NCBI GenBank assembly: GCA_029567195.1
Contig: JAKQLJ010000038.1
Span: forward strand, 1 to 62,298
Length of the DNA stretch: 62,298 bases
Direction: 5' to 3'
Source of the DNA: a bacterium
Lineage (GTDB): Bacteria > Patescibacteriota > Minisyncoccia > Moranbacterales > UBA2206
In this document: positions 5,236 through 26,291 of the stretch, one piece after another
How positions within the stretch are numbered: the stretch's first letter is position 1
Layout of the letters: every line of letters starts with the position of its first letter
Position numbers and translations under genes: made by a program
Notes under the pieces: generated by a model
Seen by the model: the letters and a program-made list of their open reading frames with translations, nothing else
Databases searched by the model: none
What the model was told of the DNA's origin: nothing

Positions 5236-5272
5236 AAAAAAGGCGGCCCAGCAGTGATCTGCCAGCCGCCTT
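5236..5272 (-). terminator. Intrinsic terminator after the small ORF at 5288-5509
   Basis: AAGGCGGC/GCCGCCTT stem followed by a T run on the minus strand. Confidence 0.6.
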
Positions 5273-5287
5273 AAGGGAGGGCAATGT

Positions 5288-5509
5288 TCAGTTTCGAGTG
5301 GGGGGGTCGTTCAAATTGGCAAAGCAAAGAGATTTTCTTTCGCCTTTTTCATCGCACACTGTTACTGGTGATTTACATATCCCGTTAATAATGTCAGTGC
5401 CGCCACAGCGGGGACATGTTGCCGTGTTAACAACGCTTTTTTTTCTGAGGGTTTTTTTCGCCCCATCTTGTAAATTTCTCAGTTTATCCTCATCTTTTGG
5501 AAAAAACAT
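5288..5509 (-). CDS. Small Cys-rich protein, 73 aa (CPRCGG, Zn-ribbon-like)
   Basis: GAGGAGG SD 5' of ATG; five Cys including a CxxC. Confidence 0.65.
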   Translation of the reverse strand: MFFPKDEDKLRNLQDGAKKTLRKKSVVNTATCPRCGGTDIINGICKSPVTVCDEKGERKSLCFANLNDPPTRN

Positions 5510-5565
5510 AGCATTTACCTCCTCTGTATTTTTGTATTAAAAGTACTGATTGAAGAAAAGAAATC

Positions 5566-5586
5566 AAAAAACCGCCGCCGGCGGTT
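5566..5586 (-). terminator. Attenuator-type terminator of leader unit C
   Basis: AACCGCC-GGC-GGCGGTT followed by a T run. Confidence 0.7.
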
Positions 5587-5613
5587 GTCTTTTGGTTCGA
5601 TTTTCTTTTCTTT

Positions 5614-5691
5614 CTACGAACGCTTAAAAACAACCGCTTGGCGAATGGCGAGCAATAGTAGGCCTAGCAAATTGTTTTGTCGTTTGTTCAT
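5614..5691 (-). CDS. Putative leader peptide C, 25 aa (MNKRQNNLLGLLLLAIRQAVVFKRS)
   Basis: Manual translation; ATG lies 6 nt after a -10 box; its 3' end is complementary to the terminator arm. Confidence 0.55.
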   Translation of the reverse strand: MNKRQNNLLGLLLLAIRQAVVFKRS

Positions 5692-5697
5692 AATAAT

Positions 5698-5726
5698 AAT
5701 TTAATACGGCTATTATTTTTTGTCAA
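5698..5726 (-). promoter_or_regulatory. Sigma70-type promoter of unit C
   Basis: TTGACA-N17-TAAATT. Confidence 0.6.
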
Positions 5727-5826
5727 ATAAAAAAACTCCATACTAAACAGCGTAGTGAATAAATCCATTTCTTATTTCAACCAAGCTATGATTTGCTGCT
5801 TTCCAATAATGATCCAACAAAAAAAC

Positions 5827-5972
5827 CCGTCATCCTGAGCGAAGTGAAATTGGGGTAGCGATTGAACGTAGTCGAAGGATCTGCCAATTAATATCAAAAC
5901 CAGCAATTCTATTTAGTAGATTCTTCGGCTTCATCTCGTCCTAAACGGACTCGATTCCGCTCAGAATGACGG
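5827..5972. repeat. Palindromic REP-like element, GTCATCC...GAATGAC family
   Basis: Terminal IR CCGTCATCCTGAGCGAA / TTCCGCTCAGAATGACGG and inner IR CGAAGGATCT / AGATTCTTCG. Confidence 0.8.
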
Positions 5973-6005
5973 TAAAAAGAAACACGCTATTTGTTAAAGA
6001 GCCAT

Positions 6006-6037
6006 AAAAAAAGCAAGCGGACAAGGCGCTTGCTTTT
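6006..6037. terminator. Bidirectional intrinsic terminator
   Basis: AAAAGCAAGCG / CGCTTGCTTTT. Confidence 0.7.
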
Positions 6038-6046
6038 GAAAAGGTT

Positions 6047-6199
6047 TTAAGATGTCCGGAAGCTTTCTACGGCATCATTGTATAATTTTTGGCATACCGG
6101 ACATAAATTTTTGCCAGGAATGACCTCTCTTTTTTTGCTGCAACAGTTGTTGCAGCATCTTTCTTTGGGATGAGGATCTTTCGGGTGTTCTTTTTCCAT
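6047..6199 (-). CDS. Small Cys-rich protein, 50 aa (MEKEHPKDPHPKERCCNNCCSKKREVIPGKNLCPVCQKLYNDAVESFRTS)
   Basis: AAGAGGTG SD; CxxC ... CPVC pattern; not in the ORF track. Confidence 0.65.
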   Translation of the reverse strand: MEKEHPKDPHPKERCCNNCCSKKREVIPGKNLCPVCQKLYNDAVESFRTS

Positions 6200-6211
6200 T
6201 GTTTTCACCTC

Positions 6212-6475
6212 TTAATTCTTTCCGTTTCCGTTTATTCGGAGAAAGAGCTTTACTTCAGGTGAAGCTTGATTTCCAATGTCGCGGCACGATTTTTGGTGAT
6301 CGCACCTTCCGCCATGGAGACAAACATCATAAGGATACTTTTTTTGATCGCGAGCCTCCTCAAGGATTTCCGGTCCCCGAGGACAATGCCTGAGGGGATA
6401 AAAACCCGGTTCAGTTTCTATCCTGCTTCTCAAGGCTCTTATTTCCTGCTTTCTGTCAGACGGATAAAACGCCAT
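6212..6475 (-). CDS. Small Cys/His-containing protein, 87 aa
   Basis: AAGGAGG SD; HCPRG and CLHGGRCDHQKSC. Confidence 0.6.
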   Translation of the reverse strand: MAFYPSDRKQEIRALRSRIETEPGFYPLRHCPRGPEILEEARDQKKYPYDVCLHGGRCDHQKSCRDIGNQASPEVKLFLRINGNGKN

Positions 6476-6534
6476 TTTTCCCTCCTTTTATTTTCTATTT
6501 TTCTAAATTGCTTTTATTTAGTTTAAAAAAGAAC

Positions 6535-6605
6535 AAAAAAACCGACTGCCGTCGGGTTGATTTTAGATATTTTTTAAAAAGTAAAATCAACTCGACGATG
6601 GTCGG
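6535..6605 (-). promoter_or_regulatory. Antiterminator/terminator switch of leader unit B
   Basis: CCGACCATCGTCGAGTTGATTTT can pair with AAAATCAACCCGACGGCAGTCGG (20 of 23 positions). The latter contains the terminator CCGAC-GGCA-GTCGG plus a T run. Confidence 0.7.
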
Positions 6606-6649
6606 ATAATAATGGTAATAATAATTTGGCTTAACAGGTTCTTTTTCAT
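6587..6649 (-). CDS. Putative leader peptide B, 20 aa (MKKNLLSQIIITIIIRPSSS)
   Basis: ATG 7 nt after TATAAT; six Ile codons within seven positions. Confidence 0.6.
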   Translation of the reverse strand: MKKNLLSQIIITIIIRPSSS

Positions 6650-6656
6650 TTAATTT

Positions 6657-6685
6657 ATTATAATATATGGCTGAAAAATTTTCAA
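6657..6685 (-). promoter_or_regulatory. Sigma70-type promoter of unit B
   Basis: TTGAAA-N17-TATAAT. Confidence 0.65.
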
Positions 6686-6756
6686 ATAATAGGGTGCCAA
6701 GGAAGAGAATTGCTTCATCATGTTTTGATGAGCTCTCTTCCTCGGCGGGAACCGCT

Positions 6757-6987
6757 TTAGAAAAACGGCTGTTTTGAATCGGGGTCAGGAGGTGTAAGGT
6801 TGCAAACCCCCGGGATATGCTTGTCTTCCTCAGTAGCAATTACTTCCTTAATATGGCTACTTTCTATTTGTGCAGAAGGTACTCCACATTTTCGACGACT
6901 TTCCTTTCTCCGGGCTTTTCTGAGACATTCGGCAATATTATCGCAGCTTGCTACATCAAATTCTTCTCCATCGCGCATACAATTCAT
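6757..6987 (-). CDS. Small Cys-containing protein, 76 aa
   Basis: AAGGAG SD upstream; five Cys. Confidence 0.5.
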   Translation of the reverse strand: MNCMRDGEEFDVASCDNIAECLRKARRKESRRKCGVPSAQIESSHIKEVIATEEDKHIPGVCNLTPPDPDSKQPFF

Positions 6988-7216
6988 GTTCTTCTTCTCC
7001 TTTTAGGTTAAGTTTTTTGGCACATTTATGATTTCCTGATTGAATCTCTTTTTTCGCTCTTTGTGGAGAGCGCCGCCAGAATTCAGTCGGATGTGACCTT
7101 ATTTATTCTGACAGAAGTTCAATGCAGGAAACCATCCATGAGCCGGAAAAAGAAAAATATTTTTCACTCTTTCCGGCTCGCGGATTTTTTGCGCCTTTTT
7201 AAAGAACTTATCAAAT

Positions 7217-7240
7217 AAAAATCCCGGTCTTTTACCGGGG
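7217..7240 (-). terminator. Terminator of leader unit A
   Basis: CCCGGT-AAAAG-ACCGGG followed by ATTTTT. Confidence 0.55.
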
Positions 7241-7265
7241 TTCTCTGTTTTTCTTATCCTTTATC

Positions 7266-7355
7266 TTATTGAGATTCCCCAGCAAAAAATTCTCGCCCTA
7301 CAAAGACGGAAGAAATGAGAATAATCTTCAATGTGTTTTTCGCCGAGTTCCTCAT
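7266..7355 (-). CDS. Putative leader peptide A, 29 aa (MRNSAKNTLKIILISSVFVGREFFAGESQ)
   Basis: Manual translation; lies between a consensus promoter and a terminator. Confidence 0.45.
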   Translation of the reverse strand: MRNSAKNTLKIILISSVFVGREFFAGESQ

Positions 7356-7377
7356 TTAAATATTGTTATCTTGTAAA

Positions 7378-7406
7378 AGTATAGGGGATTTTATGTTTTT
7401 TGTCAA
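7378..7406 (-). promoter_or_regulatory. Sigma70-type promoter of unit A
   Basis: TTGACA-N17-TATACT. Confidence 0.7.
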
Positions 7407-15870: not shown

Positions 15871-16611
15871 ATGAAGGATTATTTCCTGAGAATGATCCGA
15901 CGCCATGTCGGATCGAATCTGATCGATTGGAGGAACAGATTTAAGGGGGTAGGGACGAAAAAAAGAAATATATTGATCATTATTGTTCTCTTGCTATGCA
16001 CGAGGCTATTTTTTTACGCCTTTTTTGATAATTTCGCTCAAGCGGAAAAACCGATGAAAATTGACAATGTGGATGAAGAAATTATTGATCCAATGAACAA
16101 AATCAAAAAAGAAGACAGCCAGGAAGATAAAAAAAACAAGGCTAAACTTTGCTTTTCTGATAAAAAATTAGGAAAAAAAGATATATATAAACCGGAAGAA
16201 AAAATGCGGGAAGAGGAATATCGGGAAATGGTAAAAGGTTATCCTTTGGAAGAAATGGTGCCATTTATCGCCAGAAAGGATGAAAAGACAGCCGCCTTTC
16301 TTATCGGTATCGCCAAAAAAGAAAGTGACTGGGGAAAGCACGCTCCGCGAAAAGGTGACCGAAGTTGCTATAATTATTGGGGCTATAAGGGAAGTTATAA
16401 TCTGGTCCAGGGTTATTCCTGTTTCGATTCTCCGGAACATGCCATTGAAATAGTTGGAGGGAAAATAGACAGTCTGATAAATAAAAATATTGACACGCCT
16501 GAAAGAATGGTGGTTTGGAAATGCGGATCAAGCTGTGCCGGCCATAGTCCGGAATCAGTCAGAAGTTGGATAGGCGCGGTAAGGACTTATTGGCAAAGGA
16601 TACTTTCTTAA
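15871..16611 (+). CDS. Membrane-anchored lysozyme-like/glucosaminidase-like protein, paralog 2
   Basis: Same catalytic-like block as paralog 1. Confidence 0.6.
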   Translation: MKDYFLRMIRRHVGSNLIDWRNRFKGVGTKKRNILIIIVLLLCTRLFFYAFFDNFAQAEKPMKIDNVDEEIIDPMNKIKKEDSQEDKKNKAKLCFSDKKLGKKDIYKPEEKMREEEYREMVKGYPLEEMVPFIARKDEKTAAFLIGIAKKESDWGKHAPRKGDRSCYNYWGYKGSYNLVQGYSCFDSPEHAIEIVGGKIDSLINKNIDTPERMVVWKCGSSCAGHSPESVRSWIGAVRTYWQRILS

Positions 16612-16740
16612 ATTTTTAAAATTGGCTGATAATCCGCAGTGCCATTGCTATTAAATAGCTATTTGTGCCAGCTTGAAAGGGCTGGCTTTTTATAAAATAA
16701 AAGACTTGCCGGTTTTTCAGGCAAGCCCCGTGGGTGGTTT

Positions 16741-17223
16741 TCAATTGAGAAGAGTTCCCGGAGGAGCGCAGTCTGTTATCTCCATAATGGTCAGTATATT
16801 GTGATTTTTGTCTATGACTAGATAAGCATCGACTATGGTCTGGATACAAAGCAACCAAAAATTTACTTTTCGAAGAGCGTCCTGGAAGGCTTCATGACAT
16901 TTTTTGTCTATTCGGATAGTAGCGGAAAAATCAAAAAAAATTTCCTTGACGATTTCTGTTTTGTTTTTTTCGTTGAAAATGATGCCGGCTTTTATGTGAT
17001 CGCCATAAATAATATAGGCGAACATTCCATTTTCCAGTAGCTCTACTTCCAAGAAAATCTTGCTATTGTAAGCTAATTGTTCTCCGAGCGGTTCTCTGAT
17101 ATGGCCAAGATTGAAAGATATGCATGGCACTTTTCTGCCATTCTCTCCGTTTTGAGAGAAATCAAAAAAACCGATAGTGAATGAGACTTCCTTTGTTTCT
17201 GCAAAGATATCTGAAAAATTCAT
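16741..17223 (-). CDS. Hypothetical protein, 160 aa
   Basis: AAGGAGG SD before MNFSDIF; the ORF-track extension to 17322 runs into the terminator. Confidence 0.6.
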   Translation of the reverse strand: MNFSDIFAETKEVSFTIGFFDFSQNGENGRKVPCISFNLGHIREPLGEQLAYNSKIFLEVELLENGMFAYIIYGDHIKAGIIFNEKNKTEIVKEIFFDFSATIRIDKKCHEAFQDALRKVNFWLLCIQTIVDAYLVIDKNHNILTIMEITDCAPPGTLLN

Positions 17224-17285: not shown

Positions 17286-17340
17286 ATAAAAAAAGAACCC
17301 CTGCTGGTTGGAGATTTTTCAAGAAAAACCAGCAAGGGGT
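17286..17340 (-). terminator. Terminator within the 5' leader of the 16741-17223 gene
   Basis: ACCCCTTGCTGGTT / AACCAGCAGGGGT followed by a T run. Confidence 0.75.
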
Positions 17341-17421
17341 GGTATGGACGATCGTTACGTCCTGTTGATGCCTCTGGGAAGACCTAGTTAGTCATCCCGC
17401 CTCTTGGCCGCCACTCGGTCA

Positions 17422-17460
17422 TCATTCGTTCTTCTTCTTTCTTAGTGTCAACGCAATCAT
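17422..17460 (-). CDS. Putative uORF/leader peptide D (MIALTLRKKKNE)
   Basis: AAGGAGAG SD; downstream of TTGACA-N18-TATTAT (17529-17558). Confidence 0.4.
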   Translation of the reverse strand: MIALTLRKKKNE

Positions 17461-17592
17461 AAGCTCTCTCCTTCTTCGCCGTTCGGTGGGAGAAACTCCC
17501 ATTATCGGAAAAGACTCTCAACGCTTAAATAATAGCAAATTTTTTCATGGATTGTCAATAAAATTTCTTTTAAACTTGGTTAAAAAGCTTCC

Positions 17593-17822
17593 AAAAAAAA
17601 CGGGAGAGTCCGGCTGTTTGCCGTTCTCTCCCTGAGGCGCGCGCCATCAATATTTTTTTAGAATTACACATTTTGTAAGCTCGTTGATGGCTGCGAGCTT
17701 GAAGAATGAGAAGATCGCTTCTTATCGGGCTTTCAACGTTAGTTTTTATCTGATCTTGGCCTTGGGCCGCGCGCCTTTTATGATCAGCGACAACACGACG
17801 GAGCCCCGGATAAAGGCGATGC
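17593..17822 (-). ncRNA. Candidate structured ncRNA with own promoter and terminator
   Basis: TTGACA-N17-TAATAT at 17829-17857; several GC-rich stems and loop-distal complementarities; ends in GGGAGAG/CTCTCCC plus a T run; no SD-led ORF. Confidence 0.5.
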
Positions 17823-17939
17823 AAGGAAATATTAAAATGAAAACCGGACAATGTCAAAGCAATTTTTTCGTTTTAATGACAAGGAAGCGTTGTTTATTGT
17901 ATAATGATAAAAGAATAAACATCAAAAATAAAAACAGAT

Positions 17940-18869
17940 ATGAATTGGCTGACTATTACTGCGGTCGCATATTTTCTTTTAGCTTTGGAAGTAGTTTTGA
18001 ATAAATTTCTTCTTTCTTCCAAGCGCATTTCCCATCCGGTAATCTATGCTTTTTATGCCGGAGCAACCGGACTTTTTGCTCTGGTGTTTTTGCCTTTCGG
18101 TTTTCATTGGATAGGATTTTCTGATATTCTTCTCCGTTTTTTGGGCGGCATTGTTTTTATCTACGGAATGCTGGCATTTTTTTCGGCGCTTGATAAGGGG
18201 GAGGCTAGTCGCGTAACGCCAGTAGTGGGGGCGGTTGTGCCGATAATCATCTTTTTTCTTTCCATGATTTTTTTGGGGGAACGTTTAAACTTTCAGGAAA
18301 TTAGCGGTCTTCTGGCGCTTGTTACAGGAGGCTTATGGATTTCCTATGATTTTGGCGCCAAGAAAAAATTTCAGTTATTTTCTGGTTTTTATTGGTCCGT
18401 CTTGGCCGGAATTCTTTTGGCTGTTTCAGCGACAACATTTAAAAATTTCTATACCCATGACAATTTTTTAAATGTTTATATTTGGACCAGAATGGGTGCT
18501 TTTTTGGGAGTGTTGATTTTTTTTCTCGTTCCGGGGTGGAGAAAAATTATTTTATCGTCCCTTTCTAAGTTTAAAAAACCCGGATCTGACAACAAAAGAT
18601 CGGGAATTTTGTTTATTTTGGCAAGATCTCTGGGCGGCGGCGGTTCAATCCTCAAAGAAAAAGCTACTTCCTTGACGCTGGCCAGTGTTACTTTGGTTAA
18701 CGCCCTGGTTTCTTTGGAATATGTTTTTGTTTTTGCTCTGGGTGTTCTTTTTTCTTTTTGGTTGCCGGGTGTTTTTATGGAAAAGAAAGATTGGAAAAGC
18801 GTGGGGCAAAAAATCATAGCTATATGCATAATAACCGTCGGCTTTATGCTAATTTCGGAAAACAAATAA
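17940..18869 (+). CDS. EamA/DMT family membrane transporter
   Basis: About ten TM segments, ALDKGEASRVTP..P, GERL. Confidence 0.8.
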   Translation: MNWLTITAVAYFLLALEVVLNKFLLSSKRISHPVIYAFYAGATGLFALVFLPFGFHWIGFSDILLRFLGGIVFIYGMLAFFSALDKGEASRVTPVVGAVVPIIIFFLSMIFLGERLNFQEISGLLALVTGGLWISYDFGAKKKFQLFSGFYWSVLAGILLAVSATTFKNFYTHDNFLNVYIWTRMGAFLGVLIFFLVPGWRKIILSSLSKFKKPGSDNKRSGILFILARSLGGGGSILKEKATSLTLASVTLVNALVSLEYVFVFALGVLFSFWLPGVFMEKKDWKSVGQKIIAICIITVGFMLISENK

Positions 18870-25812: not shown

Positions 25813-25898
25813 TGCCGCGTAAAGAAATTTGCTAAAGCAAATTTCCACGCGGCTACCACGTGATGAAATTTTTTCAGAAAAAATTTCATTTTACGTGG
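25813..25898. repeat. Double-hairpin element, GCCGCGT family, copy 1
   Basis: TGCCGCGT..CACGCGGC and CCACGT..TGAAATTTT/AAAATTTCA..ACGTGG. Confidence 0.75.
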
Positions 25899-26291
25899 TG
25901 GAGATGGCGAGAATTGAACTCGCGTCCAAAATTATTCTTCCAAAATAATCTACAAGTTTAGCTTATCTGTTTGTTCAATTAAAGATAATAAATAAGCAAA
26001 ATCACTTTAATTTATTTCTGATATAATTTTACTAATATTACTCAGAAAAAACAATATTAGCTATTCTGATGTTTGACACCAAGATCTGCCTATCAGAAGT
26101 CGGCAGTTTGATGGCTAAAGCTATGTTTAAGCTAAAGCAGGAGCGAAAGACGGTGCAAAAGCTTGCGCAATTGCTGTCTTTGCCTTTGTTATGAAGTTTG
26201 CACTTATAACTTTGATAAAAATTTTAACGGGTCATTATCATTCCCGACTTGCCTATTTTAAAAGTACAACCTGTCGAAACCAAACATCCCC
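25896..26291 (-). ncRNA. ssrA: tmRNA
   Basis: 5' GGGGATGTTTGGTTTCGACAGG; 3' T-arm GTTCAATTC and CATCTCCACCA; G3.U Ala identity pair; tag frame 26127-26201; adjacent to smpB. Confidence 0.95.

Follow-up and report, generated by a model that had tools for sequence, protein, structure and literature searches.

On the minus strand of a contig from the order Moranbacterales (Patescibacteriota), a promoter is followed by about 230 nt and then by a terminator. Does this locus, which is designated here as RNA1, encode an independently transcribed structured RNA, and does it belong to any known family? To our knowledge, almost no experimentally described small RNAs are known in CPR/Patescibacteria, and our literature search turned up no account of sRNAs from CPR or Moranbacteria. 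A sequence-only reading of the DNA had proposed a stand-alone RNA in which two hairpin loops pair with distal segments, and had retained a divergent 6S RNA as another option. In this study, we examined the locus within the window (the whole 62,298-nt stretch of DNA that was analysed), within the rest of the genome (829 kb, 38.8% GC; designated as G000), and in relatives of the same species, family, and order.

Promoter, terminator, and coding potential of RNA1

The unit is delimited by the following features.

17593..17822, minus strand: RNA1, a predicted transcript of about 230 nt with ends placed from sequence signals
17829..17857, minus strand: P1, the promoter of RNA1, from sequence reading and a promoter scan
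17593..17632, minus strand: T1, the intrinsic terminator of RNA1, from an inverted repeat, the MFE fold, and a terminator scan

P1 consists of a perfect −35 box (TTGACA, 17857–17852), a 17-nt spacer, and a −10 box (TAATAT, 17834–17829). It scored 10/12 matches in the promoter scan, and the consensus promoter that had been claimed for the minus strand is thus present in a near-consensus form. An A-rich tract lies upstream of P1, which stands back-to-back with the promoter of an EamA gene on the plus strand (17876–17905). RNA1 is numbered from position 1 = 17822, a start deduced from the −10 box, and its 3′ end, as read from the sequence, falls within a U8 tract. The GC content of RNA1 is 48.7% versus 38.8% for the genome, and ranks among the top 4% of 200-nt windows.

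T1 reads GGGAGAG-AA-CGGC-AAACA-GCCG-GA-CUCUCCC-G-U8, forming a stem of 7+4 bp with a 2×2 internal loop, an AAACA loop, and then G and U8. It was recovered as an inverted repeat, as part of the MFE fold, and in a separate terminator scan (−26.2 kcal/mol); we attribute its absence from the standard terminator scan to the 2×2 internal loop in the stem. A terminator had been expected about 230 nt from the promoter, and T1, with its U8 tail, is a strong one. Given that a second strong promoter, P2, begins about 35 nt past T1, RNA1 is a unit of its own. With its own promoter, an intrinsic terminator, and no SD-led ORF, it has the generic anatomy of a bacterial sRNA gene, in line with the stand-alone unit originally suggested.

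The lack of an SD-led ORF was likewise upheld. The sole candidate in RNA1 is a GGGG located 7 nt ahead of a 16-codon frame with a GUG start (MLSLIIKGARPKAKIR); this signal is weak and lies inside a predicted helix, whereas genuine genes here use AAGGAGG-type SDs. A 95-codon frame (17857–17570, minus strand) spans the unit, beginning in the −35 box and ending 23 nt past the U-tract. Because it crosses T1, a terminated transcript would lack its stop codon. We found no Pfam match for this frame and no homologue among 5.8 billion proteins, and a 106-codon frame on the plus strand had no Pfam match. Units with mini-ORFs are common in the genome, which, together with the open frame across the unit and the GGGG ahead of the GUG, would fit an mRNA for a small protein encoded by the 16-codon or the 95-codon frame; the position of the longer frame, its lack of relatives, and the poor SD of the shorter one make such an mRNA very improbable.

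Predicted pairings and the 3′ clamp strand

The structural elements considered below are as follows.

17714..17820, minus strand: predicted 5′ domain (RNA positions 3–109), from the MFE and centroid folds, a prediction only
17750–17787, minus strand: hairpin CUGAUC 36–41/GAUCAG 68–73, inside the 5′ domain
17768..17776, minus strand: loop segment C (AGGCGCGCG, positions 47–55), in the loop of the CUGAUC hairpin
17677..17700, minus strand: hairpin AAGCUCG 123–129/CGAGCUU 140–146
17635..17650, minus strand: 3′ clamp strand (UUGAUGGCGCGCGCCU, 16 nt, positions 173–188)

In the predicted fold, the 5′ domain is closed by AUCGC/GCGAU, CUUUAUC/GAUAAG, and GGGCU/AGCCC. Loop segment C is complementary to CGCGCGCCU (positions 180–188) over 9 bp, and the loop of the AAGCUCG hairpin carries GCCAUCAA (positions 132–139; 17684–17691), which is complementary to UUGAUGGC (positions 173–180) over 8 bp. 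All four elements of the initial description, i.e., the two stems and the two loop-to-distal pairings, are thus present in the sequence. The distal partners abut in UUGAUGGCGCGCGCCU, which is a perfect complement of both hairpin loops, contains a 10-nt palindrome (GGCGCGCGCC), and ends 2 nt upstream of the T1 stem, outside the terminator. With loops of 2, 0, and 26 nt, the AAGCUCG pseudoknot would have H-type geometry, an arrangement that should be sterically acceptable. Alternative pairings are available to both clamp partners: the AGGCGCGCG region (45–51) can pair with the 5′ segment CGCCUUU (5–11), and positions 85–90 can pair with 136–141. Inspection of the sequence and constrained folds revealed no antiterminator and no rival to the T1 stem.

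To judge these pairings against chance, we used 2000 dinucleotide-preserving shuffles of the 190-nt RNA1 body. A perfect helix of at least 9 bp occurred with P = 0.059 and two helices of at least 8 bp with P = 0.024, and two helices of at least 8 bp with abutting 3′ strands occurred in 0/2000 shuffles, although the adjacency statistic was picked post hoc and its true significance is hence weaker than 1 in 2000. Read with this reservation, the loop-to-distal complementarity is improbable by chance, and it is solely from these complementarity statistics that we infer a clamp fold. The GC-only octamer GGCGCGCG is rare: it or its complement is encountered 12 times across the 829-kb genome, and two of these occurrences lie in RNA1, in inverted orientation and 132 nt apart. 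No other partner for the clamp was found in the genome at up to 3 mismatches.

The nested fold is ordinary. The MFE of the 190-nt body has a z-score of −0.82, with 33 of 200 shuffles being as stable, and the opposite strand of RNA1 folds at least as well (z = −1.72). The whole unit reaches z = −2.51, a value that appears to come mainly from the terminator, given the −0.82 of the body.

RNA1 and known RNA families

A search of the window with Rfam 15 identified tmRNA alone (25896–26291, 158.6 bits), and no family matched the RNA1 strand in the local region even at E up to 10, which bears out the claim that RNA1 is not in Rfam. This negative result is meaningful because the same lenient setting recovers a divergent T-box upstream of glyS (G000:C10:20680-20935; L273 403-595; E = 8.6e-4). 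The T-box scores 27.7 bits versus a gathering score of 93, indicating that curated thresholds miss known families in this lineage.

The housekeeping RNAs were considered individually. The genuine RNase P RNA of the genome is located at G000:C28:67773-68158 (127.6 bits), and its motif GAGGAAAGUCC is not in RNA1; across the order, RNase P RNA was found in 21/21 genomes, in five of them under the gathering score. The genuine tmRNA is the copy at 25896–26291 of the window. The SRP RNA models (RF00169 and RF01854) gave no match in the window, and the signature strings of this RNA are not in RNA1. The sequence-only reading had likewise noted that RNA1 lacks the RNase P, SRP, and tmRNA signatures. 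Since SRP RNA, Ffh, and FtsY are absent from the order (21 genomes checked), RNA1 cannot be an SRP RNA. The 6S RNA model (RF00013) gave no match in the RNA1 region at E up to 10 and none in the 21 order genomes. In the MFE and centroid folds, which comprise separate domains, RNA1 has no 6S-like closing stem or central bubble, as its 5′ end pairs internally (at 105–109, within the stretch 93–109) and not with the 3′ end, and it is not conserved; the earlier caveat that it could be a divergent 6S RNA is therefore unlikely to hold.

6S RNA was detected in 0/21 order genomes, so that a divergent 6S RNA could exist somewhere; this is the point in favour of reading RNA1 as a housekeeping RNA (6S, SRP, RNase P, or tmRNA) that has diverged strongly. 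We regard that reading as largely refuted and scarcely credible: RNase P RNA and tmRNA are found elsewhere, the SRP components are missing from all 21 genomes, the fold shows neither an end-to-end closing stem nor a central bubble, and conservation would be expected of such an RNA, yet 319 order genomes lack RNA1 and the corresponding locus of the relatives has no space for it.

The state of the SRP pathway is an observation in its own right. The pathway appears to be absent across the order, as examined in G000 and 20 relatives. Neither small nor large SRP RNA was found in the 21 order genomes (0/21), the Ffh M domain (PF02978) was also found in 0/21, and PF00448 matched generic P-loop stretches only, with no true SRP54-type GTPase among the 21. 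Motif scans of G000 revealed no ORF for a DTAGR GTPase. In the same searches, the controls were positive in 11 to 14 of 14 control genomes. We found no report of order-wide SRP absence in the literature, and this absence, if real, is more surprising than RNA1 itself.

Searches for homologues

The search for homologues in Patescibacteria that had been proposed as a check was carried out at several levels. A blastn search of RNA1 against 60 relatives gave short chance matches only. A covariance model that described the 190-nt body by 50 nested pairs retrieved only the query (248 bits) in 71 family genomes and in 319 order genomes (106 genera), and RNA1 thus went unmatched across the order. Two 17-bit covariance matches, both in one genus, corresponded to an unrelated palindromic intergenic element, the alignment of which to RNA1 was not significant; a copy of this element is also present upstream of glyS in G000. 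RNA1 was not found in the loci of relatives or in collections of phages, plasmids, and viruses. When contigs from metagenomes and genomes were scanned for the clamp-pair pattern, the matches listed were dominated by chance matches from GC-rich genomes. Within the species, six contigs from other assemblies were 100% identical across the region and displayed no sequence variation.

In two independent assemblies (JGI 3300025871 and Logan SRR5007225), a contig break falls exactly within the T1 loop, at 17612–17620. Both flanks of the break exist as separate contigs that are 100% identical to the window, and two other assemblies are continuous through the loop. The break may reflect a structural variant or an assembly/coverage artefact at the hairpin.

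The RNA1 cassette and its neighbourhood

Judging by the homologues of its EamA protein, the host is a Candidatus Moranbacteria-like CPR bacterium. RNA1 is part of a species-specific cassette of 1.2–1.3 kb that contains RNA1, the leader-like RNA2, and a rare 160-aa gene. The cassette, which runs on the opposite strand, is wedged between a conserved 246-aa gene (15871–16611) and the EamA gene, and its elements are arranged in the order P1, RNA1, T1; P2, RNA2, T2; ORF160, T3.

17287..17558, minus strand: RNA2 unit, from sequence reading and a promoter scan
16741..17223, minus strand: ORF160 (160 aa), with an AAGGAGG SD and no promoter of its own

In the relatives L016–L018, the homologue of the 246-aa gene is adjacent to the EamA gene, about 130 nt upstream of it. 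At the same spot, the relative L015 carries a 171-aa ORF and the relative L013 carries a unit comprising a promoter, a 26-codon ORF, a terminator, and a 50-aa ORF. The differing cargo marks the site as a hotspot of variable cassettes. The 1.3-kb cassette is bracketed by a 10-nt direct repeat, AATTGGCTGA (16620–16629 and 17943–17952). The right copy of this repeat constitutes codons 2–4 of the EamA gene and is conserved in relatives; given that chance alone would produce roughly one repeat of this kind in the stretch, it is no more than a hint of an insertion footprint.

P2, the promoter of RNA2, reads TTGACA-18-TATTAT with a TG (extended −10) and has 11/12 matches. RNA2 contains an SD-led 12-codon ORF (MIALTLRKKKNE, ATG at 17459) that overlaps a 13-codon ORF through ATGA, and it ends in a strong terminator, T2. 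RNA2 is probably the leader of ORF160, and its layout, with an SD-led short ORF upstream of a terminator, resembles that of a leader-peptide attenuator. RNA1 has no SD-led ORF, and its terminator is followed by P2 and not by a gene. The two units are not paralogous, as no similarity between them was found, nor was RNA1 similar to any repeat family of the genome. The complementarity of RNA1 to RNA2 or to the ORF160 leader is at chance level, and RNA1 contains no tandem repeats.

ORF160 has no Pfam or PADLOC match and appeared as an ORFan in a word-based search. Its family has four members among 1.84 billion representatives; HMMER detected three remote homologues with 27–38% identity. A single-sequence AlphaFold model was unusable (pLDDT 38.7). 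At the loci of the ORF160 homologues, just 100–172 nt lie upstream, and the one with readable DNA (L025) has a plain promoter. RNA1 and RNA2 are hence not linked to the ORF160 family, as these loci have no such RNA.

Proposed nature of RNA1

Our preferred reading, which we hold tentatively, is that RNA1 is a species-specific, independently transcribed small noncoding RNA of an accessory cassette, in which a 3′ strand clamps two loops. Judging from the sequence signals, RNA polymerase would initiate at P1 and terminate at T1, and the predicted fold of the transcript comprises a closed 5′ domain plus a 3′ hairpin. The 16-nt 3′ strand would then pair side by side with both loops, so that two H-type pseudoknots would be stacked on it. 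Since the genome offers the clamp no second good partner, and since the clamp lies outside T1 and the T1 stem is uncontested, a compact fold is most likely, rather than a switch. As for its role, our guess is that RNA1 might serve the accessory cassette as a trans-acting regulatory or protein-binding sRNA and would not be a housekeeping RNA. At its present stage, RNA1 is a plausible candidate for an orphan sRNA, represented by a single unconserved locus in a metagenome-assembled genome.

Orphan trans-acting sRNA genes of bacteria have a sigma-70 promoter and an intrinsic terminator, are 50–300 nt long and intergenic, and are often strain-specific or island-borne. RNA1 resembles them in that it has its own promoter, lacks an SD-led ORF, ends at a Rho-independent terminator with a U-tract, and, at about 230 nt, occupies an intergenic site within a variable region; it differs in that no seed-target complementarity was found and that the predicted double loop-to-tail clamp is atypical. 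As in H-type pseudoknots, such as those of tmRNA, SAM-II, and preQ1-II, a hairpin loop of RNA1 would pair with a downstream strand, and the loops of the AAGCUCG hairpin (2, 0, and 26 nt) permit coaxial stacking; unlike in those RNAs, a single strand would hold two separate hairpin loops, and nothing points to an expression-platform switch. That RNA1 founds a new class of compact RNAs, in which a single 3′ strand clamps two loops through two stacked pseudoknots, and that it binds a ligand or protein on behalf of a CPR accessory cassette, would be a long shot.

RNA1 resembles 6S RNA (RF00013) in size, in being noncoding, and in having its own promoter and terminator, but it lacks a stem that closes the 5′ and 3′ ends, shows no central bubble, and is unconserved among relatives. 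The leader or attenuator units of the same genome (RNA2, the units at 5236–7406 of the window, and the glyS T-box on contig C10) also consist of a promoter, about 200 nt, and a terminator with a U-tract, and RNA1 stands in tandem with the leader-like RNA2. Unlike these leaders, RNA1 lacks an SD-led mini-ORF, a T-box motif, and an antiterminator, and a promoter lies downstream of it instead of a gene. Placement among T-boxes and riboswitches is further at odds with the blank Rfam result and with the lack of an antiterminator rivalling T1. Similar to ToxI of type III TA systems, RNA1 is a terminated noncoding RNA upstream of a gene for about 160 aa in an accessory cassette; it differs from such antitoxin RNAs in having no tandem repeats, ORF160 has no PADLOC or Pfam match, and the ORF160 homologues are not accompanied by such an RNA.

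Two other explanations deserve closer weighing against an independently transcribed sRNA. RNA1 may be a non-functional leftover, that is, recently acquired or decaying DNA in a hotspot, with P1 and T1 as remnants, for instance, of an RNA2-like leader or attenuator that has lost its mini-ORF and gene, the GC-rich inverted repeats being relics at the DNA level and not helices of an RNA. The strict species specificity of RNA1 fits such an origin, as do the insertion of 1.2–1.3 kb between genes that are adjacent in L016–L018, with different cargo in other relatives, the many units of a promoter, a short stretch, and a terminator in the genome, and a nested fold that is not unusually stable; the contigs of the two assemblies that break inside T1 can also be taken as a hint of a structural junction. 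Against this, P1 and T1 are both intact and strong, and the GC content is raised rather than drifting toward AT; moreover, the split-clamp complementarity is improbable by chance, and RNA1 resembles neither RNA2 nor any repeat family of the genome. We thus consider a leftover rather unlikely, but a serious contender.

A role in cis is, in our view, improbable. Transcripts from P1 would in that case partly read through T1 into RNA2 and ORF160, and RNA1 would be the first of two tandem attenuators, or a new riboswitch, for the ORF160 operon. RNA1 is indeed on the same strand and directly upstream of RNA2 and ORF160, which lacks a dedicated promoter, each clamp partner has an alternative pairing open to it (5–11/45–51 and 85–90/136–141), and known leader classes can be missed, as the glyS T-box lies far under the Rfam cut-off. 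Against upstream control of ORF160, a full promoter (P2) lies between T1 and RNA2, no segment competes with the T1 stem while the clamp is outside T1, no Rfam leader or riboswitch emerged at E up to 10, the setting that caught the T-box, and the relatives of ORF160 have plain promoters with short 5′ UTRs.

If verified, the independently transcribed RNA1 would be a useful first example of a structured RNA of this kind in a Moranbacteria genome, and the double clamp is an attractive fold to probe; for now, it is valuable as a candidate. Of possibly greater importance are two side observations, namely, that the whole order seems to lack the SRP pathway and that promoter/mini-ORF/terminator cassettes are numerous at variable hotspots.

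Other recurrent elements in these genomes

Units composed of a promoter, an SD-led mini-ORF, and a strong terminator were observed at G000:C10:20376-20679, at G000:C16:15143-15491, and in L013 (3030–3230). One of them immediately precedes the glyS T-box in a tandem arrangement, and another is found in L013 at the corresponding spot upstream of the EamA gene. The promoter/mini-ORF/terminator unit is a recurrent cassette type in these genomes.

An intergenic palindromic element, about 160 nt long and with ...CTCGCTTCGCTCRCAGACAAAAATGGC at its end, is located upstream of glyS (G000:C10:20945-21105). Copies in another genus (L023 1480-1665 and L024 1425-1650), which lie upstream of an mraY-like gene, match it closely across some 160 aligned nt. 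The element looks like a MITE-like sequence that supplies an ATG.
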